Of a stretch of 59,472 nucleotides of DNA, positions 5,927-56,410 are shown in pieces (within the stretch, counting starts at the first letter, position 1; each line of letters begins with the position of its first letter). The position numbers were made by a program, and so were the translations under genes. The stretch is from Hydrurus foetidus (taxonomy: Eukaryota). Under the pieces are notes generated by a model that ran no database searches, was not told the origin of the DNA, and saw only the letters and a program-made list of their open reading frames with translations. The DNA lies in the NCBI GenBank assembly GCA_900617105.1, contig UYFQ01000483.1, positions 1 through 59,472 on the forward strand, given 5' to 3'.

Positions 5927-7919
5927 ATGCCAAAAAGGAGAGGATATGGTGCCTTGAGTGAGAATGAGAGGGAGGAGAACAGGAGGAAAGATATAATAAT
6001 CCTCCTTCGCCTAGCCCCAACAAGGCAGCGAACATGGCAAATGCTTTGAAATGGCATGCTTGGGGTTGGAGTATGGTAGACTCTTACACTAAGGCCGGAG
6101 TGAGCAAAAAAACCGTTAGAAGGTCAGATGCTTAACACTGACTGATGAGTACAAATCTTAAATGAGATGTTTAATCTCTATTATTACCAATCAGGGCACA
6201 CGCTGATATTCTTAATGGTGGAATCGGTCTCGACATAAAAAGTGGACGCCCATCCTTACTGTCTGAGAGTGGTGTGGCGTCACTAACCCAGCAACTTGTG
6301 TCGAGTGCAAAGAGCTGTAGAGCGATTAAGGAGCATGAGTTTGGCGCTGTCTTGCGTACAGCTATATCAGATGACAATAACAACTCTTTCGTCGACATTA
6401 CACTGGATCCTAAAACTATCAAAAAATACCAAAAAAAAGCCGCCGGGGTAGTGAGACCGGCTGATGTTAAATCCGATAGCCGGCTAAAGGCCTTTGAAAA
6501 CATTCGAAATCAAATTTCATGCGCAGCTGCCATGTAACACATCTTCAAGTCCGTCCACTACCATCTATTCTTTTCTTGTGACGACGTATCTATATTAGTC
6601 AACAAGATGGACGACATTAAGCCAAAAGTAATCTTAACGGAAGAGACGATAGAGTTTCTAAACTCTCACCACTTGTATGTTTCAACTGATGGTGCTCAGG
6701 AGCAGCAGAGAATGATAACATTCAACTTGTGTATCGGAGGAGGGTGTGAGGCACCATCTAAGGTTATCAAATTTGCCGACCGCAATTTTGAAGACCTCAA
6801 ATTCAAACCGAAAATTATCTTACTACAGCCTGATTTGAGCATCATTTTATACCATCCATCACTGGATGAAATTGAACTTAATATTTGGATGTTTCGAATA
6901 TGCATTATCCCCCAGCTAGAATTACTAAGGTATGCACTGATATCAAAAGTTGTAATCATAAATTGTCGTTATTTCAATAATCTCTTTTTAAAACTTATAG
7001 ATCGAAGGTAATAAAAGACAGACCTGGGGGTATTATGGACATTCAATTCTCTCAATCGTCTGTCCCCGATGAGATTGAAATGACATCAGCAGAGAGAGTA
7101 AATGAGGTAGAACGAGATGCAAAGATCAGAGAAATGTTCAAGTACTTGTGCATCGCATTTGATGGAGATCATCCCCAAATTGTAGCAGCAGAAAAATTTC
7201 TCATACCGAGAAGCGTTACTAAAAATCAAGACCTTGTGTTTGCGAAGTGGGCAGGGGGATGCTCGATGACGCAATCCCCTAATGATAACAACCGAGGAAT
7301 GCATCCGGTGCTGAAGAAAATATACGGAGACAGCAAATTCCGTTATGACAATATAGCCGATCCCTCAGGGGGAAAATGGGTCTTACTGAAAGCTTGCCTA
7401 AAATAGTGCTTGGAACCAGCATCGTTCCGCACCGTGTGGAAAGCAATATACTACGCACCATCGATGCTGCAGAATGCCTGCAAGGCATCCAGTATACGCA
7501 GCGCATATCACAATACAGGTATCATCGATCAACAAAAACTGATTGAAATACAGAATGGATCTGACACGGACCCGAGTAACCCACGAACTATCCTTGGAGT
7601 CAACCCCTTCTTCAACACTTTCTCCAAGGAAGATGGGGAGTTTAAATTGAGCAAGATAGACGAATTTACGGAGATCACGTCAAGGTTTGGCTACATTCCC
7701 GAGGAAGAATACACGAAGGTGCTCATGGGTAAAGCGTACCTCGACAATTGTCTTCTTTTGAAGCCAGGAGCGAAACCTTTGAATGACATGGTGACAAACA
7801 GACAGAGAAATATTGTTATGTCGAACGAGGCTTTTAAAGATCAGTCACGTGCTAGAGCAGAGAATGTCAAGATGGTAACCGTAGACAAGGAATCAAAGGA
7901 GATTAATACAAAAGTATTC
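5927..7919 (+). pseudogene. pogo-like DDD transposase, 5' part (introns ~6123-6194, ~6930-7000; stops at 6535 and 7404)
   Basis: ATG directly after TIR; HTH-like N-terminus + SGRP; FSCDDVS, IAFDGDH, SMTQSPND resemble the pogo/DDE_1 catalytic motifs. Confidence 0.75.
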
Positions 7920-8378
7920 TGTGGATCTGGCTAGAGGATATCACCTGATGACTTATAGTCCAACTGGTGTGGAGGCTACTGCAGTAGAACTCCAAGACTC
8001 GGCTAGAACGTTGTGTCGGCGAAACTGTAAGCTATATCGATTAAGATCTGCTTAGGTTTACAAGATACAGAAGATCTGCAGTTGGCAATCTGCATATGCA
8101 ACTAATATGTGATTGGCTACCTGGCAAACGAGGTGGCGAGCAAGGTAGAGGTAAAATCATGTGTGGCGTTGCAAGAAAGATCATAGCAGTTTTGGCACTG
8201 AAAGGATGCTTTCGAATATGGGATGTATCGCCACCGGCCATATCTTGTATGTACAGTGTACGTTCTATGGTGTACGTACGGTTACACATATATGTATACA
8301 GTACTACCTAACGTGTATCTATACTACTATATCTGCTACTATACAACAGACGTAACTACGTTGGTGGTTAGTCCGACA
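7920..8378 (-). repeat. 3' LTR copia A
   Basis: TG...CA; two differences seen versus 16254-16712; adjacent PPT (minus CATCTTCACTACGGGGAG). Confidence 0.97.
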
Positions 8379-8558
8379 CTCCCCGTAGTGAAGATGTATG
8401 TATGTATATGAGTGCATGTTTGCTAATTAGCTATCAATGATATAATACAAATAACAAATTGCAAGAAATTTATAGACTACTGTGTGAGTAGAATACTAAA
8501 AAATTACAAAATGCAGTGTAAAATATTAAGCTGCTCTGGAATTTGCTATTTTTTAACT

Positions 8559-9024
8559 TCATTTCGAAGTCGAAATGGGAAGACGTACGTTTGTTTTTGT
8601 AAAAGATCTTTTAAGATCATTTGCAATTTTCTTTAACGTTAGCGTTTTGCCGTCGACCGTTGGCCAGGCGAGACAAGTCTTGGTGTTGTAACCTGTTTCG
8701 CTTTTGCATCGAAGCAACTGGTCTCGGATCGTTTGGATGGCATCCATTTCGATTAGCATTTCCCAACTGGTTAACATACCGGGGCGGTATGCTTGTTCGT
8801 AGAACGCTCCTGCTGCTTTATCAGCGTTGTCGAGGAGTTTTTCTCGAGTGAGGTAGTACGCCTCCTTCATGTTGATGATGAAGATTTGCAAACCCGCTTT
8901 GCGTTGTGGGGGGGGGGGAATTTTCTTCCGAGTCTTCCGCCTTTTGCGCGCGGTGTGTTTTGCCTGATTTAGTATGGGGTTTGGTTTTCACCTTTTTGTC
9001 CTTTGGGGCGGGTTTGGGACCCGC
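8559..9024 (-). CDS. Extra ORF between pol and 3' LTR of copia A, unknown function
   Basis: 110-aa ORF 8559-8891 plus upstream basic segment across a C-run frame change; begins at a candidate splice acceptor (TTACACAG|G); bracketed by 45-bp direct repeats. Confidence 0.5.
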
Positions 9025-9116
9025 CTGTGTAAGTAGAATACTAAAAAATTACAAAAAGCATTGTAAAATTTTTAAAAAAATGCATTAAATAATACGCAAA
9101 AGTTTACAAAAGATAT

Positions 9117-12100
9117 TTATAAATTATTTCTGAGTGTCCTGTCAACAATCTGGGATGTTAGTTTAGTGAAGATGGGTAGTGTTACCCTCTTGGTACCAAT
9201 GTCCGAGTTGTTGTCTTCAGAGGCTACCTTGATCACAGTGCATGTGCTGTCTTGCACCTTTTCCTTGGCATACGCTTCGGCGAGTGATAGGTGACGCAGG
9301 TTTCGGGTCATATGAGTGGTCTTTGAGTAGTACATGCAAGCCTGGTTGTCCTCTTCGATGATGGTTGGATCCTGTTTCCACCCTATCATCTCTAATATAC
9401 CGCGAGTTGGGATGACTTCCGACTTGAGTGCATGGTTCACAGCCTTGATCTCTGATTCCGCTGTGGACGTGGATACTTACCCTTGATCGGTGGAACACCA
9501 GCAAATGAGGCTTCCAGCGAGATATCCGAGGTAGCAGGTCTGGGAGTGGTGGTTATCTTGGTTACCACCTAGATCTGCATCGCACTGGAACTTCAGCTGT
9601 AGTACCTTGGTCATGGTGTCTATGTCGGTTGGTCCGTCATGGGTCCGGAATATGAGACGGTCCCTCTTCGCATACTTGACATATCTCAACAGGTGCTTGA
9701 GGAAAAGTATGTGTCTGGGACCAGGATTGTTACCATATCTCGAAAGTATGTTGAGTGCGTACACAATACCCACCATTGTGTGCACCATACCGTACATGAG
9801 TTGTCCGACGACACGCCTGTACGGGTACTTTTGACATGTGGCCCTATCGACGTCATTGGTGGGGCAGTCCATCTTGGACAGTGGTGGCTGCTGCGCGTCG
9901 GTGGGATATGGGAGGTGCTCGTCCTTTGCACCTGTGATGTTCGCCTCCTTGATGATAAGGTCGATCATACGGTGTTGATCCATGTAGTAGTTGTAGTGTT
10001 CGTCTACTTCTATACGGATACCGACGAACTCTTTGTCAGTTGCATCAGTGACTTGATATCCATGCTTGTTGAATGCTTGGATAACTGCATCCCATTCGTG
10101 GATGTGGTCGGGTGGACCAAACCATCTGAAGTCATCACTGTGTGCGATGATAATCATTGGTTTGCCCGAGTGCGTCCACTTGAAGAACAGTTTGAGGTCC
10201 CATGGTGTGTTCTTGTACCCACACTCCCTCAGGCACTTATCGAACTCAATGGAGAAGTTCTGTCCGGCTGGAGGGAATCCATACAGGTTTCCTACTGCTT
10301 GTATGCAGAAACCGGGTGGTACGTCGTACCCTTGAGGTGTGATGAACACTGGGAAGTCCTTGTTTGCTCTTGTTATGAGGTATGCACCTACAAGGTCACC
10401 GCCTCTCATTACGAGCTTATACGTTGCCGCTATGACCATGGCCAGCTTGATTGAGCAGGCTGCTACATTTCCACAATACACAGCTTCGGGGTCGAAGTCA
10501 ACGTTGGGAATCATCTTATCCCCTCTGCCGACCAGTCGAGTCTTCTTTGTCCCATCGTTCTTGACACTGAACAGCCACATCATCGGAACTAAGTGCTGTC
10601 CAGTAAAAGGGACGATGTTGAAGCAAGAGTTGACTTCAAACTTAGTCAGCTCAGTGTCGATGGCTTTTGCCCATGGTGGGTCCTTCATCGCTTTCCAGAA
10701 CGATTTGGGAACGCCGGCATCTGGGAGTGTCTTTATCTGATCATAGTGAGACGTCTCAACTACAGTCATCAGTTGCTCCGGATGTGTGGCCTGGATTGCG
10801 TACCAATATACGGCATCCTCTGTTTCCCATGACACTATTGGTGTGTTTGCACCAATCGAGTCGACGGTGTTTGCAGGGTGTATTGGTGCACTATCAGGTA
10901 TGCGTGGTGGTGAGGCCCTCTTGGGTGCACCGCTATGCGCCACTGGGTGGGGACCAGCTGGAGTTGTGACTGCATTCGTATCACTTCGTCGTCGCATGCT
11001 GTGGTTGGGGTCGACCTGGTTTGGTTGTATCGCCTCACTTGGTGCATGCATTGTGACTTGTGCATTTGCAGGCGTCTGATTGTGTGCCGCTTTTGGTGCT
11101 GGGACAGTCGTTTGAGCTGCCTCATGTATATGGGGTGGCTCTAATGCTGTTGTGGCTTCCATTTGTTGCACTATCTCTTCAGGCAAGTCGAAAATGACGT
11201 CTTTGCTGATCCTCACTGCGCCATATTTTCCCTTGTCTAATATCTCGATGACTTTGTAGGTAGGCTCAAGTGTGGTCGTCATGTCATATCCAATGAACCT
11301 GGCTTGGTATGCTCGGGGGTGACCGACTTTACCGCCTGCGTCCTTGGTTGGTATGTGGACCCAGCACTTGGACCAGAAAGCGTGGAGATGTTTGACGACA
11401 GCATGCTTTTAGTTAGCATGTTGTATGGGGAAGTACCTATCACACCATTGAAATTAAACGACATAGTGGCACACACATAGCTCATGACAATGTCCCAGAC
11501 CTTGGTTAGAACCGGTGGTGTGGGGGCTAGCATAATCGTGTTGCAGTTGGCTGCAATGACCCCCACTGTGCACTCCGCTACTCCATTGGCATGCTTGTCA
11601 CGAGGTGGTGTGGGCTCAGTGCGGTATCCAAAGCCTCCGAGGCACTTGGTGAACTCACTGGATCTATATGACTTTTCTGCATCGACCCTAACGAACCGAT
11701 CGATTGGGTCTGATGTAGCAGGTGCGTTCCTCCATTCTGGGTGAGACTCGAAGAGCAGGCTGACTTGGTCGCATAGCTCTTGGGCTCCCCGGTCACGGGT
11801 GAACACCGGATACACACGCCGTGTGGTGAGATCCGTGAAGAGGTCGCAGTATTTGAACCGGCCTGCGCCTCTTTCTGCGTGGGTGTATGCATCCAGAGCA
11901 AACTGGCTCCCCGGTATGGGTGCTGGTGCTCTATGGACCCTTAGGTGGTCCGTGGATGCTTGTCGCATTGTGCCCTGGACGCATGCTTGACACACGGGAC
12001 GGTGTGCCTTCGCATCGTTGCGGGTGTATGCTGCTCCAGTGGAGTGTGTCCGGTGCCATTCCATCCCTTCTTTACCAGGATGTGCTAGGACACGGTGGAC

Positions 12101-12160
12101 GTGGTCGTATAGTGAGGTGTCTTTAACGCTTGTGACCAACAAGCGCAACTCGTCACGAAG
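9117..12160 (-). pseudogene. pol: copia A integrase-RT-RNase H (frameshift ~11400, in-frame TAA 9477)
   Basis: HRVLAH..CQAC zinc finger, LDAY/VDAE/GVAE DDE, GNLYG, AHSDDF, CDADLGG, STAESE, EEDNQA, SDIGTK. Confidence 0.95.
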
Positions 12161-15100
12161 TCAGATTGACTTCTGGATGTAGAGTCCATCCTCTACTTCT
12201 CCCCGCAACTTCACAGGTCTTGCTGATCTGTGCCAGGTGAGGTTGTTACTCTTTGAGGCCGTAGAATCTGCAGTCGCGTGACGTGAAGATACCGCACATG
12301 TTCTCGGCACATGCCTGCGACACTGACAGTAGGGTCGTGTCCTTCATTCCTTCGATGACGATGGTCGGAAGCATGTATGGTGGCAGGTCACCCATCTCTG
12401 ATGGTGTGATAGTCTCCCCGAAAGCTGCATTCACCGTGCATGATGCAGGCCGTAGGTTCTTCAACTTGTTTCTGAGACCAGTTCCTGACGTGGAAGCTCC
12501 ACTGTCGATGATAACTTTATTTTCTTTTGAGGCCATACCCAGGACTCGATGTGCCGGCCCTACAGCGTGCAGAAGGTTCAGTTTGGCCTTGGGGCCTTTG
12601 CGAAGTTTCTGTAGTACCCGCCGTGGTGGCGTTGGGGCCGTGAGGTCGACTACAAATGGTTTGCCTGAACGTGGTTGATGTTGAAGAGCTGGTGTGGGGG
12701 GTCCTGGTGATGCCTCTAAGGCGCTGGGAACCGGCAATGGTGCCGCTGATGCGCTGTTGTCTCGAATTGGTGCCGCTGATGCGCTGCGAGCACTTGAGTG
12801 TGCCGCTGATCCGCTGATGACAGGTGGAATTGCTGGAGATGCTCGAGAGTTCTTATATGGCGCCGCTGATCCGCTGCGAGAGCCCGGTGATGCCGCTGAT
12901 GCGCTGTGCACAGTGGTTGGTGCCGCTGATGCGCTGTGTATACCGTGGGATGCAGAGGATCCGCTTTGGAGGCGCTGAGGAGTCGATGTAGCAGGGGTGC
13001 TCTTTCGTGATGCCGCTAATCCGCTGCCAACACTGGCTGATGACTGCGAGGTCGTGATGACGTTTCTTGATGAGCTGGTCATGCTGCTTGATGTTGGTTT
13101 GGCTGGGTCAGCTGCTTTCTCCTTGCCCTGAGTACGCTTGGCAACATAACCCCATCGCGGTGCACCATTTCCATACATGCCTATGGCAACGCGCTGTGGG
13201 GTTGACTGTGGAGTCGCTGGCGTGCGTGGTTCAGGTGATTTGTTTAGTGTGTACCGACGAGGTGGTGTAGGTGCAGGTTGTTGGGCCGGGGACAGTGGAG
13301 GTTGTATAGGGAACGTATCTGCATCATATTTCTGACGTGCTTCTACCGCTTTGACCTCTGACTTCCTCGGCTTCTTTCTCTGAGGCGTGAATACCTCCGG
13401 CGTGTCTGGAAAGTTGTACAGGTTCCTTAGGTCACGCTCTTGTTTGGGTTTGTCAAGTGGGGTGGTGTCTTCGCGCTGCGTATCCTTGTTTCGGAGGGCT
13501 GCGTTGGGACTGATGGTTGCGTCACTTGTATCCTCCCAATAGTTAGGCTGATCAAATGTGTCTACAGCTTCTTCATACTCCATGTCGTCTTCGGTATCGA
13601 TGCCAGAGAGGTCGCCATAGCATATCTCTTGATTGCCTTCCGAGGTGCTCATGACTGAGAACGTACGTACTTCCTGCGGGGGAGGTGCTTCGCGTTCTAT
13701 GACTGGTGGGCGGACTGTATCCACAATAGCATGAAATATCCGTGTGAGCATATGTAGCTCAACATACTCGGGTTCTTCGCTGAGCCTCTTAATCTCGTGG
13801 CGCATGATGACTCGTCCAGCCATGATTGTCTTGCGGTTGATAATGTCTACGTTTAGATGCTCTGCTGCATATGACATAAAGTCATACACTAGACCTAGCA
13901 TTAGAACGTTTCGTGTATCCGATGACACTCTCATGATGTTTATCCTATTTGCGATAACATAGAACTCGTCTATTTCATTTGCTCGTGACATGTAGTGGCC
14001 CGGTTCTCCCCGTGGGTGATAGTCCGACCATGTGGGTCTGAACAAATTAAACTCCCTATAGGTCAATTCTTGAGCGGTGGGGAAATCCATATGGGCGTTG
14101 AAGTACTCGCTGTTTTCATACAGCAGTTCCATAACGCGAGGGTCCGCATCTTTCACTTGGAAGTTTTCCTTACACATGTTGTGTAGTGGGTTGCAACTTG
14201 ATTGCCAACGGAATCCGGTGAATATGGTGGCTTCGACCTCACTGGTGGATCTGGCAAGGTCCGACTTGGTATACTTGTGGACGTATACGAGGAGATCTTT
14301 GATGGTGGGTACAAAGTCGTTGACATCTCTGAAAGTCTTGATTCGTTGATCGATGGACTTGAGCATGGCTTCCTGACTTTGATCACCCTTGATGTCTCCT
14401 CGGATATGACGACGCGTCTGGGGCTTGTACGTTTTGGTGGTACGTACGGCGTGATGGCGTTTGTCTTGAATACGTTTAAGTGCTCTGTCTTGTTTTGAGA
14501 CTTTGCAATGTCAAAGTATGTTGGATCCTGCCAGCCGTCTTTGCTTCCCTGGCTTGTAAGCGACTTGAGGACGACGAGCTGCTTGATGGAGTATCCTTCA
14601 GGATTCTTGTCCGTAGGTTTTCCACGTGGAGACCCGATCTTGGATCGGTGCTCGAATGATACCTTCTTGTGTTGCGGTGGTTGATACTTTGTCTTGGACT
14701 TGTCGTAGGTCTTCTCCTGTGGCTTGCGCTCAGATGGTTTACCTCCTGGAGCCTTGGATGTCTTGTGTGAGTACTTACACCGCTCACCGAACGTACAGGA
14801 GCCTTTGAGGAAATTGCGACATACATTTTCCTCAGTGATTGCATTCATCTTGAATGCTTTGATGGTTGGAGGGTCGGCTCGAATGAGCTGATCGACTAGC
14901 TCGCGATATCCTTTACTGTTTCCCCGAGAGGTATACAGGATCGCTTCCATACCCTCCTGCTTGTTCCCTTTGAGCTTCCTGGTCAGCAGGTATAGCTTCT
15001 CTGACTCCGTCATACACGTGAGATTAACGTTGTTCACGCGCGTGACAGCTTCCTCGAACGCCGCGATGTTTTCTTTGATCGACTTGCTTGAAGGTAGCTT

Positions 15101-16237
15101 GAGATCGTCGAGTAGCTCCCTTGATAGTCCGCTCTCATTACTCCTCTCGCCTTGAGCAAAGCCTTTGATGGCTTTGTACCACTCGATCCCGTTCTTGACG
15201 TCGATGTGTTGCGTGATGAGGTAATGTAGGTCCTTGTTTGTGACAAGATTCATCAGAGCGAATAGTCTTTCACAATCATGGTTGAATCTAAAATAATCAT
15301 CTTTCTTTGTGATGATTATTTTGTTGCCGTCGAACTTGGCAGATTCATGAGTATAACCGTTCGGATTATATTCATTTGATGGAACGGGGATCCTCTTTTC
15401 CTCGGCGAGAGTAAAGAGTTCGCACTCGTTCAGGAGAAGCTCGAGCTCTTTGAGCTTCTTCCTATTCGTAGCCCCGTCATTTGACAAGTTGATCTTGACT
15501 GCCATCGATGATTGATGCGTCGTAGTGATCGTATACTCTTTGACGGCGACCCTCCTACTTTCGATAAGGCTATTGTCGTGAGACTTCCTTTGATCGATTT
15601 CGATTACTGATTGGAGGTCGCTGACATCATCTCCTACGTCTAGGATGATTTGACTCCCCGTGTTTTGTTGCGCCTTTTCGACCGGCGTCTTACTGATCAC
15701 ACTTTCTGATGAGATCGTGTATTCGGTCATAACTGACCGAATGATTTCTCTGATATCTTCATTCGAATACATCCTAGAAGATTGCCCAGTGGCCAGAGAT
15801 ATGGCAGGCTCCGGAGAATGGTTGATGATTAGATCCGCTGAATCGCTCCTCTTCCCATTGTCCATAATCGCTCCAGGAATTATCGGCAGATCCTCCTGAA
15901 TAGGATCCGGCGGAGCTGGCGCTTTGAGAATATCCTCAACTAGTATGCCTAACTCAGTTTGTTGGACGATGAGCGCCAGTAGAATAATATCCTGCTCAAT
16001 ATTAACGAGGAAAGCCGGTTTCGATGGTGCTGAAGCTGACGAGATAAATCTCGTTTGGCCTCTTGACCGAGTAGCCATTCGAGCAGCGGCGGGTTGTTTT
16101 GCCGCTGGTCTTGGCACACTAGAACTTCTGTTCCGAGTGGCCGGCATTGCTTTGCTTGTCTGATGACTCAATTTTAGTTGATAAAAATGATCAGTTTTTC
16201 GCCAAAAATCTCTCATACTTGATTTGTTGTTTCTCAA
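12161..16237 (-). pseudogene. gag: copia A gag - CCCH finger - unknown domain - aspartic protease, ending at TGA 12161-12163
   Basis: CRNFLKGSCTFGERCKYSH; IIDSGAS; frameshifts ~14380 and ~12215, TAA at 12246. Confidence 0.88.
12738..13030 (-). repeat. Coding minisatellite (S-A/G-S-A-A-P units) in copia A linker
   Basis: Repeated TGCCGCTGAT(G/C)CGCTG on plus strand at 30-39 bp spacing. Confidence 0.85.
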
Positions 16238-16253
16238 GAATCAGTCGCTACCA

Positions 16254-16712
16254 TGTGGATCTGGCTAGAGGATATCACCTGATGACTTATAGTCCAACTG
16301 GTGTGGAGGCTACTGCAGTAGAACTCCAAGACTCGGCTAGAACGTTGTGTCGGCGAAATTGTAAGCTATATCGATTAAGATCTGCTTAGGTTTACAAGAT
16401 ACAGAAGATCTGCAGTTGGCAATCTGCATATGCAACTAATATGTGATTGGCTACCTGGCAAACGAGGTGGCGAGCAAGGTAGAGGTAAAATCATGTGTGG
16501 CGTTGCAAGAAAGATCATAGCAGTTTTGGCACTGAAAGGATGCTTTCGAATATGGGATGTATCGCCACCGGCCATATCTTGTATGTACAGTGTACGTTCT
16601 ATGGTGTACGTACGGTTACACATATATGTATACAGTACTACCTAACGTGTATCTATACTACTATATCTGCTACTATACAACAGACGTAACTACGTTGGTG
16701 GTTAGTCTGACA
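16254..16712 (-). repeat. 5' LTR copia A, PBS at ~16243-16253
   Basis: Direct repeat of 7920-8378; followed on minus strand by TGGTAGCGACT (initiator-tRNA-Met-like, cf. Ty1 TGGTAGCG). Confidence 0.97.
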
Positions 16713-16717
16713 TATTC

Positions 16718-18197: not shown

Positions 18198-20414
18198 ATG
18201 CCTCCCAGTTCAGAACTGTTGCATGAAGTGAAGTCCCAACAGAACGTGCTCATAGCTCGTGCTGGTCTATCTGTTCCTGGTCATGAAATGCATGGAGAGG
18301 ACATCAATACCGCGATGTTTACCCAATTTAAATATCATGTTCTGAAAAGAAGGCATAATCTCGATGCGCCAGAAAATACATTCCTTCGTTCATGGCGACA
18401 TCTTGATGCTACCTGCGGTGACAAGGATTTTCACACTGGAGCTACCCTCTGGAGGAAATACGCCGCCATTAAGAAATACGTCAACAATAATATCACGTCG
18501 ATATATGTTAAACATTTGGGTCCTGATGGGCAACCCCCATCTGGTCAAACAAAAGCGGATATCTTTAAGAAGACACGGCGTGATTTATTTCTAGCTGAAC
18601 AGGAAGAATCGAAAGCGAAGTCCAAAAATCCCGCTTCATTCAAAAAGAAACCCTTCTCATCCTCATGGTATCCAGTTCAATGGGGAGTCTTCCTTGAATT
18701 TGGCAGAGGTGCTGATCATCCTGAGAGAGCTTTCTTGAGTAAGTTAGAATCTACTTTATCAATTTACATGCAGAGGGCTAGAAAAAGAGTTTCTGAAATC
18801 ACCAAAGTCAATGAAGATTTGAAGAAACCTACGGAAACAGAAGTGAACAACAAGAAGGACCGGAAAGTCTTGAACCGTCAAGTGGAAGTATCTCGGGAAG
18901 CTGTTGAATTCAAGAAGAGAAACAGTGTAAGTCATCAGTGCTGACTAATTGAGTACATCTAAACATCAAGCAACTCCATCTTATTTAATCAATTTATGCA
19001 GCGATTTGAAGAGCTCAAGTTCTTGATGAACATGGAGACTGATCCAGTCAAGAAAGAGGTATGCATGGAAACCATCCGTGCTTTTGTAAAGCAAGGTCAA
19101 GAGTTGGTGGTCACGAATCTTTGTGATACTTCTTCCGACGAAGATGAGACAAGAGAAATTGTTAGTGACGTCACAAAGAGTAGCATCGAGACTACTACTA
19201 CTTCTCAGGACAACAGAAGAAATCAGCGGCGCTTACTATCTGGAATTATTGAAAAATGGAATTCGGATGTATCTGACGAGGAGGTGAAAGATGCAGATAA
19301 TGAAAGTGATAATAAGGACAACGAATCTTCAGATAACAATCAAGGAGACGATCAATCTTCAACCTCTTCCAGGTCCACTACCTCTTATCCACCAAGAATA
19401 TTTAAGGAATACGTTCCTCCCAACTCCACCAACTCCAGCTATTCAAGTCAAGTCAAGACTAATAAATCCAAGGACATTCCTACTGGCCGTACCAACTCAA
19501 CCAAGTCCAGTCAAGTCAAGACGATTAAAGCTAAAGATACCAGAGTATATGAGGAAAACAATCCAACCAACCGTCCAAACTCCAACAACTCAAGCAAGTC
19601 CAGTCAAGTCAAGACGATTAATGCTAAAGATACCAGAGTATATGAGGAAAACACTCCAACCAACCGTACCAAAACAACGAACCATATCGACTCCACAAGC
19701 TCAAGCAACTCTTGCAACTCAAGCAACTCAAGTGAAGTTAAAACTAATCAAAGAATAGACCCACGACTACAGCTAAGGAAAAACTTCAAGAAACCCTTCA
19801 CGAGCACTCAAGAAAACGACATGAGAGAACAACCAAACACAACCGTTACAACAAAGAGCTTCCATTATCAAGATTACATATCACGGAATAACGCATCGGA
19901 TGAAGACGAAAGTCAGACAGTATCATCTACCACCCAAGCCACTGAAAGCCAATCCGATCCATCCAACACTGCCATCATCAACCACACTAAACAAAGTCAG
20001 AGTAATGGGATAGAGGAGGAAAGCCAGACCAATTTATTCACCATTGAAAACCGTATGGATGAAACTCAATCCGAGGCCGAAGATAGAATCTTAGCCGAGA
20101 CTTCAGCCGATATAGCATACTTCAAACAAAGCATTGCATCTTCTGATGAGAATGAGAACACAGTCATGGAGGATTCGCAGCTTACTGATTTGGAAGAGGA
20201 AATAGGGTTACCTACAGCGAACAGTAAAGATGTCAACAGCAGAGCTCCTTTCCTGACCAGAAATACGAAACCGAACAATCGTTCAGTAACAAGATCACAA
20301 CAAGAATTAGGGAAAAAGAATAGTACGAAGAAGTTGACTGAAGAAGAGGAAGAGCAGTTGGACATTTACGCATCGTATGAAAAGGATAATAAGCTCAAGA
20401 GGAAGAGGAAATAA
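18198..20414 (+). CDS. Harbinger accessory ORF (putative DNA-binding protein), intron 18927-19001
   Basis: GTAAGT...TGCAG phase-0 intron joins ORFs 18198 and 18996 in frame; W-containing helical N-terminus, long S/T/N-rich tail with a 93-bp duplication (~19503-19670); convergent with the transposase. Confidence 0.75.
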
Positions 20415-20643
20415 ATACTAAATATCACTAACCTATTTTCATATTTTTTTTTGGTTTTGACATATCATTGTTTTTTAAAAGTCCGTTGATGTTGCAATGC
20501 TTGAATAAATCCTTCTATTTACAGGGATAACGCTGGTAAAATTTAAAACTTTTCCTTCAAAAAACTTATGTTATTTTTACAAAAATGAATCATCATATGG
20601 GAAAGCACGTTCAGTCACTGCATAGTTACATTTCAAATTGAAG

Positions 20644-22074
20644 TCACTTTCTTTTTTTAAGCCATTGAATTTGGTTTCGTTTATATTTCCATAAATAGTG
20701 ATCTACAAGTTTTTTTTGTAATGTAGTGTAAGATGATTCATATTCAGTATCACATTCTCCATGTACAATTCTAAAACGATCCTCCACTGCAACTGCGCCC
20801 ATAAGAGTATAATCAGTAAGTGGTGTCAAATTACGTACTCTACTTAAATGTTGCCTGAATATAATCATATCTTCATGAGCATGATCACCATCAAGTCCTA
20901 TATAATTTACGTTCTCTTCCCATCTAACATCTAAACCGTCGAAATGTAATAGAATATTATGCAATATACAACAACAGTAAAACATATTATCAATAGTAAC
21001 TTTATCATGATAATATATAGGCAATTTTAGACAACGGAATCTACCTTTTAAGACACCAAAGACAAACTCTACATCTTTACGAACTGTCTCTGCCCGTTCA
21101 CTCCATAGTGACTCTCTGGGAATAGCCGAATGTTTTAGAGGACATTGAAGGCACCTCCACTTGTGATAGCCGCCATCAACTAATAGCCAAGCTCCTTCTT
21201 CTTCATATTCCACACCGTCCCTTGTATTCATTTTATATTTAACATCCCCATATTTTAATCCATCATGAATGTCACTTACGAAACCATCGAATCTTACTAT
21301 AGTGCGATCACTTCTTGTACCAGGAAAACCATGCGTTACTGCAATAATTTTAGAAGTATGATCACAAGTTACTTCATAAGAGAGAGTGGGAAAACCTTCT
21401 TTACCCTTGTGTAGAACACGATCACCAGATGAACAACGTTCCCACTTGATGTGGACACAGTCGGTACTACCAATGCAACCCGGAAATCCTAGTCTATCAT
21501 ATACAGCCAGTGTTTTCGCAATCTCCTCTGGTGTCTCAGGAGGATTGCAATAGATAGAAAAATATTTGTGGGCAAAGTGATTGCACCATTTGTGGAAGAA
21601 TACTCTGTTGACCTCCGCACTTATATAAGAGAGTTCCTCTATCCCATCGAAGCAGAATCCCCTCCCGAGAACTCGAAGTACTCCAAGAATCTTCAGTTCC
21701 AAGGGGGCACACTTCTGCCCCGCAGCATCATTTTTTTCACTGAACCAACCATTACCTCGAGTCATTTCTACCAACCTCTCATACAAGGGGAAGGGTACAC
21801 GAAAACGTGTTCTGAATAGAACACCGCCCTTGCGATCGGTAGGATCTTGCGTTCTAGGGTGTACCAACATACGACCCCAACAAGACATTTCATATGGTGG
21901 ACGACCTTCCCATCTCCGGAATTTATATACTGGTTCATCAACTTTATTTATTCCTCTAATGAGAGGATGTTCCTCAACATCGTCTCCACGGGATTTCTTT
22001 CTTCGCATAAAGGCAGCCATATTGCGACCGATGTCTCCAGTAAATTTCTCGATATCATCATCGCTAGAATCCAT
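20644..22074 (-). CDS. PIF/Harbinger (DDE_Tnp_4-type) transposase, intact 476 aa
   Basis: GFPGCIGSTDCVH, GTRSD, LVDGGY, RKDVEFVFGVLKGRF, CCILHN. Confidence 0.95.
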   Translation of the reverse strand: MDSSDDDIEKFTGDIGRNMAAFMRRKKSRGDDVEEHPLIRGINKVDEPVYKFRRWEGRPPYEMSCWGRMLVHPRTQDPTDRKGGVLFRTRFRVPFPLYERLVEMTRGNGWFSEKNDAAGQKCAPLELKILGVLRVLGRGFCFDGIEELSYISAEVNRVFFHKWCNHFAHKYFSIYCNPPETPEEIAKTLAVYDRLGFPGCIGSTDCVHIKWERCSSGDRVLHKGKEGFPTLSYEVTCDHTSKIIAVTHGFPGTRSDRTIVRFDGFVSDIHDGLKYGDVKYKMNTRDGVEYEEEGAWLLVDGGYHKWRCLQCPLKHSAIPRESLWSERAETVRKDVEFVFGVLKGRFRCLKLPIYYHDKVTIDNMFYCCCILHNILLHFDGLDVRWEENVNYIGLDGDHAHEDMIIFRQHLSRVRNLTPLTDYTLMGAVAVEDRFRIVHGECDTEYESSYTTLQKKLVDHYLWKYKRNQIQWLKKRK

Positions 22075-26611: not shown

Positions 26612-27067
26612 GGCTGTACCATAACGGTGTTTTAGACGGATATTGAGACCTTCTTTCTGTATTCGATCCCCGACCACATCAATAGGTCCTAAAAGTCTAA
26701 GAAACCGTTTTTCGCAACGAATATCACGAGTGCAATACTTTAAAGTACCATTACACGCATCATTATGATGAGATCTACTCAAAAATGCTATTTACATGTA
26801 AACGGTCCCATGCTTTCTGTAAACAGTCCCATGCTTTCTGAAAACGGTCCCATGCTTCCTGTAAACGATCCCCATAATTTTTATTCCCCGTTTTTTTCCA
26901 TCAGAAATTTTCCGTCTTTTTAAAACCGCTCCCCTGCTCTAAATAATACGAAGCAACTATATAACAGTACCATTACCGTACTTATCTCGACGAGAGCTAC
27001 TCAAAAACGATATCTCTTTGTTTTAAGTCCCCGAAATGGGACCGGTTACAGCGAAAAGTCGTCATAT

Positions 27068-27694
27068 CGAGAAATTTACTGGAGACATCGGTCGCAATAT
27101 GGCTGCCTTTATGCGAAGAAAGAAATCCCGTGGAGACGATGTTGAGGAACATCCTCTCATTAGAGGAATAAATAAAGTTGATGAACCAGTATATAAATTC
27201 CGGAGATGGGAAGGTCGTCCACCATATGAAATGTCTTGTTGGGGTCGTATGTTGGTACACCCTAGAACGCAAGATCCTACCGATCGCAAGGGCGGTGTTC
27301 TATTCAGAACACGTTTTCGTGTACCCTTCCCCTTGTATGAGAGGTTGGTAGAAATGACTCGGAATAATGGTTGGTTCAGTGAAAAAAATGATGCTGCGGG
27401 GCAAAAGTGTGCCCCCTTGGAACTGAAGATTCTTGGAGTACTTCGAGTTCTCGGGAGGGGATTCTGCTTCGATGGGATAGAGGAACTCTCTTATATAAGT
27501 GCGGAGGTCAACAGAATATTCTTCCACAAATGGTGCAATCACTTTGCCCACAAATATTTTTCTATCTATTGCAATCCTCCTGAGACACCAGAGGAGATTG
27601 CGAAAACACTGGCTGTATATGATAGACTAGGATTTCCGGGTTGCATTGGTAGTATCGACTATGTCCACATCAAGTGGGAACGTTGTTCATCCGG
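27068..27694 (+). pseudogene. Harbinger copy 2 transposase, N-terminal part
   Basis: Near-identical to copy 1 up to WERCSSG. Confidence 0.93.
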
Positions 27695-27910
27695 TGTGGT
27701 CGGGAGAGATGCAGGCTTGAGGGGTGATTGATACGGTTCAGAGGAAAGAGGAGCCCAACTTTCGATAACTTGAAATTAATGAGCGTAGCTCAGCAACAAT
27801 TCGACTCCGAAGTGCGTGGGTTATTACTCAATAGTTGGAAGTCGTAACTAAAGTTCGACGAGTAGAGAGAATTAGTGCAGTAGAAATTTCCCGATGGATA
27901 ATAGATCTAT

Positions 27911-38500: not shown

Positions 38501-39018
38501 GAATGCGCACTCCGCCAGCCAAATCACCATCAAGAGATTCAGTGTCTGCCACACGTCGTGCAAAAGCAAGAGCACTGGCTGAGAAAAAGAGTCTCAACTT
38601 ACTTACAGTTACAGACAAAGACAGCAAATTCATGTCATTCAAGAAGACAAGTCACAAGACAGTCATTGACAGTGGTGCATCTACATCTGGTACTGGATTG
38701 CGCAGCAGTCTCCGTGACCTTAGACCTACATCATGCAGTGTCTCAGCAGCTTTCGGGGAGACTGCCCAGCCTACTGAGATGGGACTACTCCCACCATTCA
38801 TGCTCAAGACTATTGTCATCGATCAAATGAATGATACTACACTGCTCTCAGTGTCTCAAGCGTGTGCAAAGGGATTTGTGGGCATCTTCACCTCTAAGGA
38901 CTGCAAGTTCTTCAATGCGATAGATGTCATCCCACACTTTCAGACAATTTCAAAGACAGCTCACCCAGTTATGAGTGGCAAGGTAGAGGAAGGCCTCTAC
39001 TTGCTGGACTCCAACTGA
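35549..39018 (+). pseudogene. gag: copia B gag - CCCH - unknown domain - protease (frameshift ~37065), ending at TGA 39016-39018
   Basis: CRRHIAGLCTNGSSCKYSH, NPAGYS, VIDSGAS, TTLLSVSQAC, GKVEEGLY. Confidence 0.88.
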
Positions 39019-39202
39019 GTGCAACCGGCTCAACTCTTGGTCACGAGTGTAAAGGAGCTTTCGATTTACGACCACGTGCATCGCGTACTAGGACACCCTG
39101 GCGAAGAGGGTATGGCCTGGCACCCACAGTACACCATTGGAGCACACTACTCCAACTTGGATGCATCTACACCAAGACCAATATGCGCAGCATGCGTACA
39201 GG
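39019..39202 (+). pseudogene. pol: copia B integrase N-terminal zinc finger (continues at 46969)
   Basis: YDHVHRVLGHPG...CAACVQ|GTMR restored after removing G2. Confidence 0.92.
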
Positions 39203-39528
39203 TGTTACATACGTTGCTTCATATAAATCACACGTACGTACATACACAATACACGTCACTCGTAGCCACTAGTTTTTCAGATCAGTTTTCGGTTTCTGTC
39301 TGTTCGACAACTTCAACTCGAGACATACTCCATCGTAGCTAAACTCACGCTCTTTTCACTCCTAAAGTAACCAAAGTCACTAAAACCCAAGAACCAGTTC
39401 GACTCCTTTCAGTCAACCGACCATCTCGTCTGTTCCAGTTGTTCAGCGAGAGATCTCAGCTTAGCCCAATTGCGAAGCTGATCAACACGTTTCATCTTCA
39501 GTCAAGTCTCTGAAGCCGTGATACAGCA
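39203..39528 (+). repeat. 5' LTR of G2
   Basis: TGTTAC...CAGCA, direct repeat of 46637-46962. Confidence 0.96.
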
Positions 39529-39722
39529 TAAATATATATTTCTCGTTTACACGAAAAACGTCTAAATCTCAGATCCCTCAGTTGATTCAATCCTTGTACG
39601 CCAGCATCGCAGTGATCGCCCTGGCTCAGCGAGATTTTGAATCTCTGAGGTAATTTCAATACGAAACGAATTGTCCCGAAAAATCATTCAAGAAAAACAA
39701 TTCTACAGTTTCTACATCTAAA

Positions 39723-41408
39723 ATGTCTGAAGGAAAAGGAAGCTTCAATCCTAAGAAGGAGGAGCCAAAGAAAGATGAATCCAAGAAGAAAATCGAGGTC
39801 GTTAAAGAAGATCCCGCTACAGATTCCAATTTCGAGCTCAAGCAGATGTTCGCTCAGTTTCTCATCTTAAGCAAAGACAATCAATCGCGCAATACTATCG
39901 ACATTCAAGAGCTGAGAGATGCAATCTTGGAATTGAAGAAAGGAAATTACCTATCTCCAATACTAGAAGAACTTACCGACACTCCTACGCTCAATAGACC
40001 TCGTGGAGGCAGAAGATCTTCTATGTTTTTCGGAATGTCTCAACCACCATCTAGCACCCTAGGACCAACAACAGACACTAAGCCGAACATACAAGTGCTC
40101 CAAGGCGACATCGTCTACGATAAGGAACTCAAAGTTAGTTCACTAGAAGGCCTTCAATATCTGGCCCGGCAACTTCAGCTTCTATCTTCCAAATATCCTG
40201 GTCGCGAGATCAAGATGGCCCACATGGTCTCCTACAACCTGCGCCCACATGTTCTAGCATCGTGGAACTCATATAGATATCGAGAGTCTGTTATCAATGG
40301 CGCTGAGTCAAGTGAAATTATGGTTGAAGATTGGTTATCTCTAACTAACCCTGAAGTTCAAGAGATCCTGGTGGAAGCTGCCCGACCCCGCACAAAAGAA
40401 TTGTACTCCAAGGAAATCGTCATATTCCTTGGTAAAGGAATCCCTCAGACACCTCCAATAAACACCGACAATTTCTCGAGCTCGTTCTATGCCCCACTGA
40501 TGAAGTCACTCAACGACTTGCTCCATCTTTATGACCTGATGTCACCGGAAACTTCAAACCACAGTGCCAATAAATCCAAAATACCAGTACCTGGCTACGG
40601 TACCAGGGACAGTCCTGGCCAAATCGCCTTATGGCTTATATCCCTAGGCGCTCAAAAAGAAGCTGTACTTCAATGGCTAGGCAAGGATGAACTTATCAAG
40701 CACAAAACTATTGAAACAGCAGTCAAATTCATTCGATCTCGACTAATGGAAGGTCGGGCCCAAAGCGAAGCTCGTCAAGACTTCGACGCAAAACTCACCC
40801 CTATCCGTTATGAAGACCTTCGACACACCCAAGGCGAATCCCACACCCGCCTGCAGACATCCGCGGCAGGTCGTCCACCTTTCGTGACTCCTCGCAGACA
40901 TGAGCACCGTCCACATCTGTCATCTCTCGTAACGTCCGCTCAACCACCGTCATACGCAATCGACAACGAACACAATGATGATGACACTCCAGATGACGAA
41001 ATCGATACTGATGCCTCAAGCATTCATGATGATATACATCATGACGACGATACCCTACTCGCTATCAACTCAGACATTAATCGTTCCCGATCAGCTGTCA
41101 GCGACACCTATCGTGGATATTGCAGCGAACTATTCGTCTACGGCAAATGCTCACGCCAACATTCTGGTTGCACATTTGATCACTCAGCTGCCGGTCAAGA
41201 GCGCTGCATCCAATCATTCTCCCTCCTGACCAAACGAGAGTTACAGCAGCATGCGCAGCTAGAGCCCTGGTCAAAACAGAAACAAGAATCTACAAACGCA
41301 AATAAATCCGCAAACACATACGGTTCCAAGCATGTTGGCTCTCCACATAGCTCTGGATCTGTCCGGCCCTATGTACCGTCAACTTTGACTCGGCCATATC
41401 AGAAATGA
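39723..41408 (+). CDS. gag: G2 Gag-like protein, 561 aa, with CCCH-type finger
   Basis: First ORF after the LTR; CSELFVYGKCSRQHSGCTFDH. Confidence 0.8.
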   Translation: MSEGKGSFNPKKEEPKKDESKKKIEVVKEDPATDSNFELKQMFAQFLILSKDNQSRNTIDIQELRDAILELKKGNYLSPILEELTDTPTLNRPRGGRRSSMFFGMSQPPSSTLGPTTDTKPNIQVLQGDIVYDKELKVSSLEGLQYLARQLQLLSSKYPGREIKMAHMVSYNLRPHVLASWNSYRYRESVINGAESSEIMVEDWLSLTNPEVQEILVEAARPRTKELYSKEIVIFLGKGIPQTPPINTDNFSSSFYAPLMKSLNDLLHLYDLMSPETSNHSANKSKIPVPGYGTRDSPGQIALWLISLGAQKEAVLQWLGKDELIKHKTIETAVKFIRSRLMEGRAQSEARQDFDAKLTPIRYEDLRHTQGESHTRLQTSAAGRPPFVTPRRHEHRPHLSSLVTSAQPPSYAIDNEHNDDDTPDDEIDTDASSIHDDIHHDDDTLLAINSDINRSRSAVSDTYRGYCSELFVYGKCSRQHSGCTFDHSAAGQERCIQSFSLLTKRELQQHAQLEPWSKQKQESTNANKSANTYGSKHVGSPHSSGSVRPYVPSTLTRPYQK

Positions 41409-44400
41409 GATTTTGCGAGGCCTTCGTTAGCTCACATGCACATCGAAGATCACCTCGCCGACCCTCATGACTACCCACTACAAAGTGTCTTCGACCCTGA
41501 CAACATCTTAACAGAAGCCTTGCTCAGTCAGTTGGCAACCGCTACATCCACCTCGTCGCAACTGCTGTGCCAACCCTTCATTCGTTCCGGTACCGTTGTT
41601 ACTAATACCAACCCAATTCTCTTCAGTCGTGGTCTACTTGATACGGGCGCTCAAGGCAGTAACTTCATCTCCCGTCAATTGTATGAAAGATTACCATCGT
41701 CTATAACTGACCTCAGCCGCTCAATTGACCGTGTTGTCCGTCTCGGCGATGCTCGCTCTTTATCAATTCAGTTGGAAGTTCCTCTCACACTTGGAATTCT
41801 CGATTCCACTAAGAATCTCCATCAACACACACTCTGGTATAGTGTCCTCGACGTTCTCAGCCATGACATCATCATTGGCTTGGTCGATCTAATTGGACCT
41901 TTTACGAGCTTTTTGCTGATGCTGTCACAACGTCTCGTCACTTATCTATCACGTCTGGACTTGGGACGCACTTAGTAGACCTCACTGCTGCCGTTCAAAC
42001 ACTTCACAGTGACCGAAATCCTCACGATATAGTTCGAGCAACCCATTCGCTACAACGGCAAACTGCTACCTATCTCGACCGAAAATCTCGAATGTGCAAT
42101 AGTACAAACACTCACATTCAGCTTCTTGCTCTCCAAGACGGCTCCATTACTGATGTTCTCAATCATCCTCGCCTTGGCTACGTCTATGCTGATGATCGTG
42201 TTGAAACTAGGTATGATGCTTTGACCGCACTGCTCTGTTCACCCAGTCCTGGTGACATCATTCAACCTTGGTCAAAGCCTATTGATTCCTTGGCTCCTGA
42301 GGAACTTGAGACTCCTGACCCAACGAGCTTCCCCGATGATATCCTCAATTATCTCACGACATCACTAGATGAAGCTCGCGCCATCTACATTGCCGACCTT
42401 GAGACACATGTTACTCCCGCTATGCGCACCGCTTGCCCAGCCATCATAGAACTATTACAATCCGACCTAGCATACGACGTATTTGTCCCAAGAACATGGA
42501 AAGGTATTGACATGCCTCCGGTACACCTTAGTGTCAAACCCGGCATGCCTGATTATCTCAAGGCTAGACCTCGCCCAATTCGAGAGGCTTTATTCCAAGA
42601 TGCTAAAACAGAATTTGACCGCATGCAATCATACTTCTATGTAAAATCTACATCTCCAATTGCTTGCCCGCTCGTCATCGCACCCAAAGCTACTGCTCCC
42701 TACATACGATTCTGTGGAGACTATCGTGAAATTAATCCCTTCATCGAAATACCTCAAGAACCCATTCCACATGTCCAACAGTCCTTAGCAAAGGCTGCCG
42801 GTTGGAAAATATTTGTTGACTTAGACATGACCAACTCATTCCATCAAATTCCCATCGACGAATTCAGTTCCAATCTCCTCTCTGTGTCTACCCCCTGGGG
42901 ACTCTTCCGACCTAAGTTTCTCCCAGAAGGTGTTGGACCTGCGTCTGGAATTCTTCAGTCCATCGTCCGTCGCATTTTTGCTGATTTCGAAGCCTGGATT
43001 ATAGTAATCTTTGACAATTTTCTTGTGCTGGCCTCTGATTACCAAGATGCTATTACAAAGCTCAAACTAGTACTTCATCGCTGCCAGATCAATGGCCTTA
43101 TCCTTAAAATGAAGAAGTCATGGATCGGCACCGACGTCGTTACCTTCTTTGGTTATGAAGTTCATCCCGGATCATGGCAACTCTCCGACACTCGCAAAGC
43201 GGCTATATCCTCCATGATCTTTCCTACCACGCAAAAACAAATGCAGAGTTTCTTAGGAGCTGCAAATTTTTTCCATACACATATCCCCAACTTTGCTTCC
43301 TGGGCGTCGGCGCTATACGAATGCACTGTCTCTGGCTTCAACTGGGATCCCTCAACATGGAAGACAGACTACAAGAAACTCTTTGACCTCTTCAAGACAG
43401 CAATCACACAGTCTGTCACCTTGCACTTTCCCGACTACACTCTGCCTTGGGTCGTCCGCTCTGACTCCTCCGACCATGCAGTAGGCGCAGTTCTTTTTCA
43501 GGAATTCACCGACTCCAACGGAGCTATCATACATCAGCCGATAGCATTTGCATCCCACAAATACTCAGGCGCTGCCATCAATTGGGACACCTTCAAACAA
43601 GAAGCTTACGCATTGTACTTTTCAATCATTCAGTTTGGCTACTACCTACGCGGTAAACCATTCCTCCTTGAAACAGATCACCGTAACCTCGTCTGGATTG
43701 AAAGCAGTCAGGTCCCCATTGTCGTTCGCTGGCGTGTCCTCCTCCAGAGCTATATTTTCGAAGTTCGACACATTCCAGGAAAAGACAATACCGTAGCTGA
43801 CTGGCTCTCACGCATGTACCCCATACATACTGCATCACCCTCTCTCTCTGCGATCTCAACTCCTACCACCATCACTGACATGTTTAACGCTGTACATGGT
43901 GGTCGCTCCCTCCATCATGGTGCCAAGCGGACGTACTTAGCTCTCTGTCGACGTTTCCCTGGCCATGGCATTCCTCTCAGAGTAGTCCAGGATCTTGTCA
44001 CTGAGTGTCCTCTATGCCAAAAGGATCGACTTCCAATACAAACCATCGAACACAACGAAGTCCGTGAAACATTATTTCACCACCCACGATCTATCGGTAT
44101 AGATCATGTCACTATCACTCCACCGGATGAAGACGGATACATTGGTCTACTACTTGTTGTTGAACTTGATACGAAGTTTCCTCAAGCCTACCCCATCCGA
44201 GATTACACAGCGTATACTGCTGCCACTGTTCTCTTCAAACACTATTGCACATTTGGTACCTACGACTCCCTCTACTCAGACCCTGGCAGTGCCTTCACTG
44301 CTACTGTCCTCGAACATCTCAACCATTGGATCGGTATCCCTCATCATGTTTCCCTCGTTGGCCGACACGAATCCAACGGCACTGAACACGTTAATGGACT

Positions 44401-45169
44401 CTTCCTGGGTCACCTTCGCAGACTTGTCCATGATGAACGATTCACCACCAGATGGGCTTCTGATACAGTCCTACCTCTCATCAACCATGCAATGATGACA
44501 CTGCCCAACACTGAAATTGGCGGTCTCTCGCCTGCTGAACTCAAATTTGGCACTCAAGATTATGCCCGATTCCAGCTGCCACCTCCACTATCACCGGGTC
44601 ACACCTACAGTGATCTCGTAATTGCCCTCGACCGTAACCTTGCCATCGTCCGATCAATCACCTCTGAGTACCAAAACTCACTCCGTCAGCGCCGCCAGTG
44701 TGCTATGCCATCCGATTCCCACAATGTCTTCCAACCCGGTGACCACATCCTCTGGAACCCGTTAGAAACACCCCAATCGTTCCGCTCCAGCAAACTGTCT
44801 CCAAAACTCCTTGGTCCATATGAAGTAATTCAACAAATCAAGAACGATATTAGTTGCCGACATGTTGTGACAAACATCGTTTCCAAACTTCATGCAAGTC
44901 GAGTTACTCCTTACTTCGGCTCCCCTGCAACTGCGTACACTACAGCTCTCCTTGACCGTGATGAATACATCATCGATTTGATTGTCACTCACCGAGGCAA
45001 TCCAAAGAAAGTGTCCACACTCGAATTCCTTGTTCGCTGGCAAAATTACTCCGCAATCCATGACACCTGGGAACCATGGATGGAAATGAAAAACACATCA
45101 GCAGTTCACCTATACCTAAAAACAAATAACATGAAACACATAATACCAAAACAATTCACAAAAGACTAA
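41409..45169 (+). CDS. pol: G2 pol (PR-RT-RH-IN-chromodomain), one 1-nt frameshift in a T-run at ~41900
   Basis: LLDTGA, DLDMTNSFHQ, IFDN, SDSSD, ADWLSR, HHG..CPLC, LLGPY, VRWQNYSAIHDTWEP. Confidence 0.93.
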
Positions 45170-45341
45170 CCTGCAACTTTCCGACTTTACACACTGCTTA
45201 ACTCATGTTTAACCCCTGATTTATGTTGTGACTTGTTTAGTCCGGTATCACGTGGGGCCTCAGGTATATACCACACCCTTCATTTTACCATTCTGACAAA
45301 TCACAAGGGTGTTACCCCGACAATCAATAATTTTTTTAATC

Positions 45342-46220: not shown

Positions 46221-46636
46221 TATCTCACTATATCAAATGCCAATGTCAACTCTATACTCAATCTGTTCTATATTCACTCTTGTATGTATGAAATTGTGAA
46301 TCTCTGATTGATTTGATCAATGTATATATCGCTCAAACTGTCAGTTCGTTTTTGTTTTTGTATATTTTCGATCAGTACACGTCACCAAGAAAAATAAAAA
46401 AATGACGTCGTTGACGGTTTCAACTGACGCCGCGTTCCAGTAGTCTGGTGGGAAGTCTTTCGCTCAAGACGCTTGAGGCCGCGTGTCCGATTCCACTTAA
46501 ATGCCTAATAATTTCCTAATCACTTCATTCAGCTTTTATAGCGATACCTTGTACTTGACGAACTCACTGAGATGTAGTTAATGCATTGTATTTATTTATT
46601 GTCAACTATAATATATTTAAACCGAAAGGGGGGTGG

Positions 46637-46962: not shown

Positions 46963-46968
46963 TACAGG

Positions 46969-56300: not shown

Positions 56301-56410
56301 CCATGGGATCCAAAACTATTTCACAAATGGAAAGAAGAAAGAATAATAGTTCTAATAGTACATAGCGATGACTTTCGCTGGTTTGGAGATAAGAAAGATT
56401 TAAATGAGTG
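50375..56410 (+). pseudogene. pol: copia C gag-pol polyprotein (frameshift ~52190)
   Basis: CFGFQKGTCNRPTCKYKH, IFDSGAS, HMVTGH..CKGC, FSLDAY, GVAER, VHSDDF. Confidence 0.92.

Follow-up and report, generated by a model that had tools for sequence, protein, structure and literature searches.

A stop codon separating protease from integrase is a conserved, family-wide feature of a Ty1/copia clade, for which the ends of homologous reading frames provide solid grounds, and programmed readthrough of this stop, yielding Gag-protease (Gag-PR) plus rare Gag-PR-integrase-reverse transcriptase-RNase H (Gag-PR-IN-RT-RH), is the likeliest reading and probably the correct one. The elements described here lie in one stretch of 59,472 nucleotides from Hydrurus foetidus (contig UYFQ01000483.1; hereafter the window), which is a nest of eukaryotic transposons. 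The principal features of Copia A, which carries the stop, and the corresponding features of its relatives Copia B and Copia C are:

7920-16712, minus strand: Copia A, a Ty1/copia element with a CCCH Gag, LTRs, a primer-binding site (PBS) and an RVT_2 RT
16254-16712, minus strand: 5′ LTR of Copia A, TG...CA, 459 bp
7920-8378, minus strand: 3′ LTR of Copia A, with a purine tract immediately upstream
16713-16717 and 7915-7919: target duplication GAATA flanking Copia A
16246-16253, minus strand: PBS of Copia A, TGGTAGCG
12164-16147, minus strand: Gag, long linker and protease of Copia A, with the CCCH finger at about 14765-14827 and a DSGA motif near 12506
12161-12163, minus strand: in-frame TGA of Copia A between protease and integrase, five codons past a GLY motif
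12167-12169, minus strand: Ser codon TCA two codons before the stop, pairing with the TGA in a hairpin
9117-12160, minus strand: integrase, RT and RNase H of Copia A, in frame past the TGA
39016-39018, plus strand: homologous in-frame TGA of Copia B, context AAC-TGA-GTG, in the same alignment column as that of A
52179-56522, plus strand: Copia C, a relative open between protease and integrase (internal control)

Copia A has the paired TG...CA LTRs, 5-bp target duplication, PBS and purine tract of a Ty1/copia element, as well as the domain order PR-IN-RT-RH with an RVT_2-type RT, and the PBS is presumably of the initiator-Met type. Pfam matches within the element are RVT_2 and SH3_retrovirus, with gag_pre-integrs (E 0.0018) and a weak rve match in relatives; the protease was assigned from its DSGA motif and position, as Pfam gives no protease match. 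The two LTRs are nearly identical (2 differences in 459), yet this copy has five coding breaks, three in the Gag-PR part (near 14381, at 12246-12248 and near 12213) and two in the IN-RT-RH part (near 11406 and at 9477-9479), and it was therefore likely copied from a defective template, or else the assembly contains errors. The breaks at 12248 and 12213 are absent from the majority contigs in all four freshwater/sediment metagenome runs, and those near 14381 and 11406 are absent in three of the four, the fourth run having no cover there. The host is a eukaryote that occurs in freshwater, sediment and air samples, and the RT neighbours that carry a record are diatom or ascomycete clusters (1-5 records each).

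We note some further characteristics of the elements in the window. The Gags of Copia A (14765-14827), Copia B, Copia C and a gypsy element have a CCCH zinc finger instead of the usual CCHC knuckle, and this finger is followed by a linker of several hundred residues belonging to no known family and then by the protease; in Copia A the linker includes a 30-nt repeat array (12703-12965) whose copy number varies among contigs. The gypsy is a chromodomain element with identical LTRs (39201-46964) inserted in the Copia B integrase, which we take to resemble Skipper, and in this single copy the gag ends in a TGA (41406-41408) in frame with the protease and the RT lies in another frame. Inverted Harbinger-like (Plant_tran / DDE_Tnp_4) pieces are found at 20375-21211 and 56411-57195, and at 21423-22055 and 27064-27696, one of which interrupts the RT of Copia C.

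The TGA of Copia A is in frame with IN-RT-RH in the context ATC-TGA-CTT, about 115 codons downstream of the protease DSGA motif. A sequence-only reading of the window had named this UGA as the Copia A stop, and as a family feature and strong readthrough candidate it stands (see the 110 of 117 homologs below), but in this particular copy the long upstream ORF ends earlier, at a TAA (12248-12246) followed by the frame break near 12213. No variant at the TGA was found among the rows listed for the metagenome contigs (there are at least 113 further rows, and this does not prove invariance). The DNA context of the stop comes from two elements only, A and B, as searches of metagenome and viral contigs found no DNA of relatives, and searches of genome contigs found none by protease patterns and a single open C-type locus by integrase patterns.

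Of the 25 homologs from the first protein search which reach the GLY motif, 24 terminate five residues later (52-88% identity); a further three hits end within the protease and four begin past the stop. This was extended to a pooled set of 299 proteins from four protein searches, leaving out cluster-member look-ups and the query, of which 181 reach the stop column: 110 end at +5, 18 at +6 to +13 and four earlier, and the open ones comprise seven proteins of the same type as the 110 and 42 relatives. The position of the stop is thus kept in 110 of 117 database homologs of the A/B type, although it should be noted that these are gene-caller products which fix the ends of ORFs and not the identity of the terminating codon. 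Ser is found two codons before the stop in all 110 stop-type proteins compared to 5/42 of the open relatives; the residue preceding it is D, E, K or N in 106/110, and the last residue before the stop takes eleven values. The seven open exceptions carry R, R, W, W, L, Q and Y at the stop column and continue in frame into the integrase, and the five for which a member count is available have one or two members each. In multi-member clusters there are recurrent unbroken Gag-PR ORFs of 1062-1335 aa (e.g. P0020, 1335 aa, and P0005, 1174 aa) and recurrent, separate, unbroken IN-RT-RH ORFs of about 950-1040 aa (e.g. P0274, 1037 aa). A protease tree constructed by a quick method (99 rows, 126 columns) clustered the stop label, with seven changes compared to 32.8 when shuffled, but is too poorly resolved for counting origins, and P0001 is wrongly labelled as open in it.

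Because a stop at the same position is kept across the family, the copying enzymes are likely to be made by occasional read-through. Gag-protease would come from most ribosomes, which would end translation at the UGA, and Gag-PR-IN-RT-RH from the few that read on, an arrangement that would presumably serve to keep capsid in excess over enzymes (a capsid to enzyme ratio of 20:1 is given for retroelements in PMC2194720), with cleavage near a Leu-Leu-Val motif shortly after the stop perhaps separating PR from IN. An alternative genetic code in which TGA is a sense codon was rejected on the use of TGG in the host, where 83 TGG codons are found among the 7364 codons of nine long ORFs that are open under the standard code. 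The two open exceptions with Q and Y are decayed copies, and as neither residue is one step from TGA, some lineages may use TAA or TAG instead. The leaky UGA-C context to which the sequence-only reading had appealed is not shared, since Copia B has UGA-G and P0101, a frameshifted relative of the B lineage, decodes to UGA followed by a purine. The signals UGA-CUU (A) and UGA-GUG (B) fit none of the three classic readthrough motifs, types I-III (as these are described in the consulted parts of PMC3542737 and PMC13517186). Type II viral readthrough, known from alphavirus and coltivirus, combines UGA-CGG/CUA with a stem about 8 nt 3′ (PMC3542737); Copia A resembles this in having C after the UGA and a 3′ stem-loop that can form, but the following triplets are CUU in A and GUG in B, and the stem in A is 13-15 nt out in a register which is not conserved. 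An invariant Ser two codons upstream is not among the features of readthrough signals described in the same part of PMC3542737.

The nearest known arrangements each share some features with that of Copia A and differ in others. The Ty1/copia element Tca2 of Candida albicans has a gag-UGA-pol structure with an unclear bypass mechanism, and flanking sequence alone failed to direct readthrough (PMC2194720). It resembles Copia A in having one in-frame UGA between capsid and enzymes, but the Tca2 stop precedes pol and the protease in a different context, and a purine-rich spacer of 8 nt and a possible pseudoknot come after it (PMC2194720), whereas in A the stop follows the protease, so that its layout is not of the Tca2 type, and the spacer, CTTCGTGA, is not purine-rich. 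Drosophila copia has the same excess of Gag + PR over a rare full polyprotein, but obtains it by splicing from a single ORF rather than by an in-frame stop (PMC11835246, PMC5580714). Stop codon suppression also occurs in the copia superfamily in SIRE1 of soybean (pol-stop-env; PMC2194720, PMC2829016), but that stop follows pol and controls an env-like gene, and the stop in A does not lie after RNase H and before an env-like ORF. A conserved stem is described at gag-pol in Sireviruses (PMC5009743), and the diatom CoDi elements are described as having CCHC fingers and, at most, a single stop or frameshift between gag and pol (PMC2806351). Among the copia elements described in the literature searched, which was available in part and did not take in supplements, Repbase, GyDB and some key surveys, we found none whose protease and integrase are separated by a stop. 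Alpharetroviruses have the protease in the gag frame and a −1 frameshift at the gag-pro/pol junction, and so share with Copia A a recoding point after the protease, but these are retroviruses using a −1 frameshift in which the next domain is RT.

Two other groups of relatives break off at different places. Fourteen proteins from sister lineages (P0056, P0267, P0072, P0076, P0077, P0086, P0087, P0088, P0273, P0277, P0280, P0281, P0282 and P0292) leave the frame at one slippery-looking K-N site inside the integrase (G-N in P0076) which precedes the SH3-like domain, and those which include the protease are open after it; this suggests that recoding downstream of PR recurs in the group. Where the tail is long enough, the −1 frame matches K-[VI]-G-x-P-R-A-Y at 7/7 positions (five proteins) or 6/7 (two), and the site is a candidate for a conserved −1 frameshift at A-AAA-AAY, through which the stop-clade ORFs that were checked pass in frame. 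A second clade ends 8-12 residues past GxY (P0092, P0093, P0104, P0105, P0113, P0117, P0125, P0126, P0146, P0148, P0180, P0376-P0379 and P0382), and two frameshifted proteins, P0131 and P0388, decode by hand to TAG-CNA-TH here, which is compatible with the UAG-CAR-YYA readthrough motif.

The structures which can be drawn around and after the stop are:

12157-12173, minus strand: 7-bp hairpin around the Copia A stop, arms 12173-12167 and 12163-12157, ATC loop 12166-12164
39005-39023, plus strand: stop-enclosing pairing in Copia B, weaker (5/7 pairs), register as in A
12125-12147, minus strand: downstream stem-loop of Copia A, core 12145-12139 with 12133-12127, a candidate 3′ element
12129-12160, minus strand: alternative stem of the sequence-only reading, 12160-12152 with 12136-12129, predicted to be unoccupied
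12134-12142, minus strand: Leu-Leu-Val motif after the stop, second Leu TTG

The perfect hairpin GAAGTCA-ATC-TGACTTC, described earlier from the sequence with the TGA opening its 3′ arm, is present on the minus strand at 12173-12157 and is predicted to form with p ~1.0 (closing pair 0.66) in windows of ±30 to ±150 nt. Only four of the 2625 TGA triplets on both strands of the window share its exact geometry, and 41 touch some perfect hairpin of at least 7 bp, of which the window holds 51. Codon resampling with the protein fixed produced all seven pairs in 97 of 20000 trials (0.5%, for the fixed register), and the folding of the whole 66-nt stretch is marginal (z −1.89, with 8/200 shuffles equally good). 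The hairpin in Copia B had been taken as a sign of structural conservation, and in support of this the register is the same and there is one compensatory pair at −7/+4 (G-C in A, C-G in B); against it, two pairs are broken, the 5/7 pairs are unremarkable given the amino acids of B (P 0.33, codon resampling), and p drops from 0.86 at ±30 nt to no more than 0.07 in wider windows. In P0101, decoding requires G at −9, GA at +2/+3 and a purine at +4; should Val be the residue that follows, +6 would be C and a second compensatory pair would result (G-C, compared to A-T in A). Among the nine known contexts, D accompanies Val, and K or E accompanies Leu, after the stop, as pairing requires, and an amino-acid test of hairpin readiness places the nine in about the top 1% when the register is fixed, but gives P 0.05-0.39 once the choice of register is allowed for, and these lineages are related. 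As the compensatory changes mark one lineage split and not many, conservation of the hairpin is suggestive only, and we consider the chances that it is a conserved RNA feature to be about evenly balanced.

The invariant Ser provides the TC that pairs with the GA of the stop, and the variable last codon sits in the loop; Ser is TCN in 440 of 591 cases in this DNA regardless of site. An effect of the E-site tRNA or of the nascent peptide would explain the invariant Ser equally well as the stem does. The sequence-only reading had also cast the hairpin as a 3′ stimulator of readthrough, which is not tenable in the usual sense: the ribosome entry channel takes up about 11-12 nt past the A site (PMC13517186), and as both arms would be inside the ribosome when the UGA is in the A site, the stem would melt during decoding and is not a usual 3′ barrier. 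The stem further downstream, which starts 13-15 nt after the stop (+17 to +19; p 0.9-1.0), is the better-placed candidate stimulator in Copia A, and by inspection, the letters found at 12146-12147 in four metagenome runs would add two pairs to it. Copia B folds at the corresponding place in a different register; of the codon-resampled controls, 14% are as stable as the 3′ stem in B (not significant) and 3.75% as stable as that in A. No Rfam match was found in element A.

The sequence after the stop bears on whether the downstream enzymes might be made separately. The Leu-Leu-Val region is a candidate PR/IN cleavage site. The linkers that follow the stop in A and B differ in length by one whole codon, and both retain the Leu that precedes the TTG, encoded by synonymous codons. 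We also note that TTG-G at the second Leu (12137-12139 in A and 39037-39039 in B) is kept in several lineages, and that TTG makes up 64 of the 547 Leu codons in the long ORFs of the window. Termination at the UGA might then be followed by reinitiation or internal entry at this UUG to give a separate IN-RT-RH, with the hairpin refolding behind the ribosome to hold it, and the presence of TTG-G in both A and B and in P0101 as decoded, of TTG 5-7 codons downstream in several lineages, and of gene-called downstream ORFs that begin at one of the two Leu positions would all be consistent with this. There is also a precedent in the upstream RNA elements that drive reinitiation in caliciviruses and victoriviruses (PMC3542737). 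However, no UGGGA motif is found within 100 nt upstream of the stop in A or B, and neither this nor an AUG at the stop, as expected of TURBS-type reinitiation, is seen, although a non-AUG form is conceivable. The synonymous change that preserves the Leu ahead of the TTG, the linker indel that preserves the frame, and the same hydrophobic Leu-Leu-Val-type motif in open relatives also speak against it. A separate IN-RT protein would also need its own packaging route, and on balance we consider reinitiation, the main rival, unlikely.

A second way of separating the enzymes would be to make IN-RT-RH from a different RNA, through an internal promoter or splicing, with the UGA acting as an ordinary Gag-PR terminator. 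Splicing sets the ratio in Drosophila copia and in Arabidopsis copia elements (PMC5580714, PMC11835246), and a minor junction promoter is described in Tca2 (PMC2194720). In Copia A, however, the range from 45 nt before the stop to 180 nt after it contains no in-frame GT/GC-YAG intron spanning the stop, and A and B have no such intron in common. The first AUG downstream of the stop is codon 32-33, beyond the first zinc-finger His at codon 19-20, such that an internal transcript would have no AUG ahead of the zinc finger, and both the fixed frame and the invariant Ser would be left unexplained; we regard this as more doubtful still.

The sequence-only reading had proposed a readthrough switch made up of two folds around a UGA-C, only one of which could form at a time. 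In A either stem can be drawn, and B shows the stop-enclosing register again, with one compensatory pair; there would be a second in P0101 if Val follows. The letters of the alternative stem are indeed present just after the stop (CTTCGTGAC from 12160 and GTCACAAG from 12136), but it overlaps the hairpin only through CTT, has p 0.00 in windows of ±60 nt or wider as the stem at 12145-12139/12133-12127 takes its 3′ arm, and is without a counterpart in Copia B. With UGA-G in the B lineage and an enclosing hairpin that would melt during decoding, a switch of this kind is very improbable.

The UGA sits in a stem and is found in both DNA copies and in P0101 as decoded, which might suggest that the hairpin is recognised for redefinition of the UGA as selenocysteine, or for RNA editing of this codon to Trp. 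We give this very little credence: searched down to E 5, element A has no match to the Rfam SECIS models (which may miss protist forms), and the open copies have no Cys at the stop column. Edited genomic RNA would return to DNA as TGG, yet the open exceptions show W no more often than R (2 vs 2 of 7). The suggestion that non-autonomous copies have spread a stop which disables the element, with the hairpin due to chance, would fit the other breaks carried by A and B and the 51 perfect hairpins in the window, but is already largely refuted as regards the stop and as a whole scarcely credible. The stop is retained even between lineages whose identity falls to about 50% or less, the ORFs flanking it are unbroken, and the other tested breaks of A are missing from the majority contigs.

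Programmed readthrough at a stop placed after the protease therefore remains our preferred reading. Going beyond this, we suggest tentatively, as a possibility that we do not hold to be probable, that the upstream Ser codon pairs with the UGA in a covarying hairpin which governs access to integrase and RT, and that this would represent a recoding signal of a new class. It would belong to a group of protist Copia elements in which lineages have switched between a post-protease stop, a UAG-CAR-YYA-like stop, a −1 frameshift inside the integrase and an open frame.

Retroelements need capsid in large excess over enzyme. In the sources consulted this is controlled at the gag-pol boundary or by splicing; a conserved stop that falls between protease and integrase would place the control of capsid and enzyme at a new position. 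Split ORFs of this sort are likely not the result of decay, which should serve as a warning to annotators. The invariant Ser beside a freely varying last codon would make it possible to tell sharply whether termination is tuned by an upstream codon, by the nascent peptide or by an RNA stem, and sister lineages with different recoding sites would offer a natural series in which to see how recoding signals arise and replace each other.
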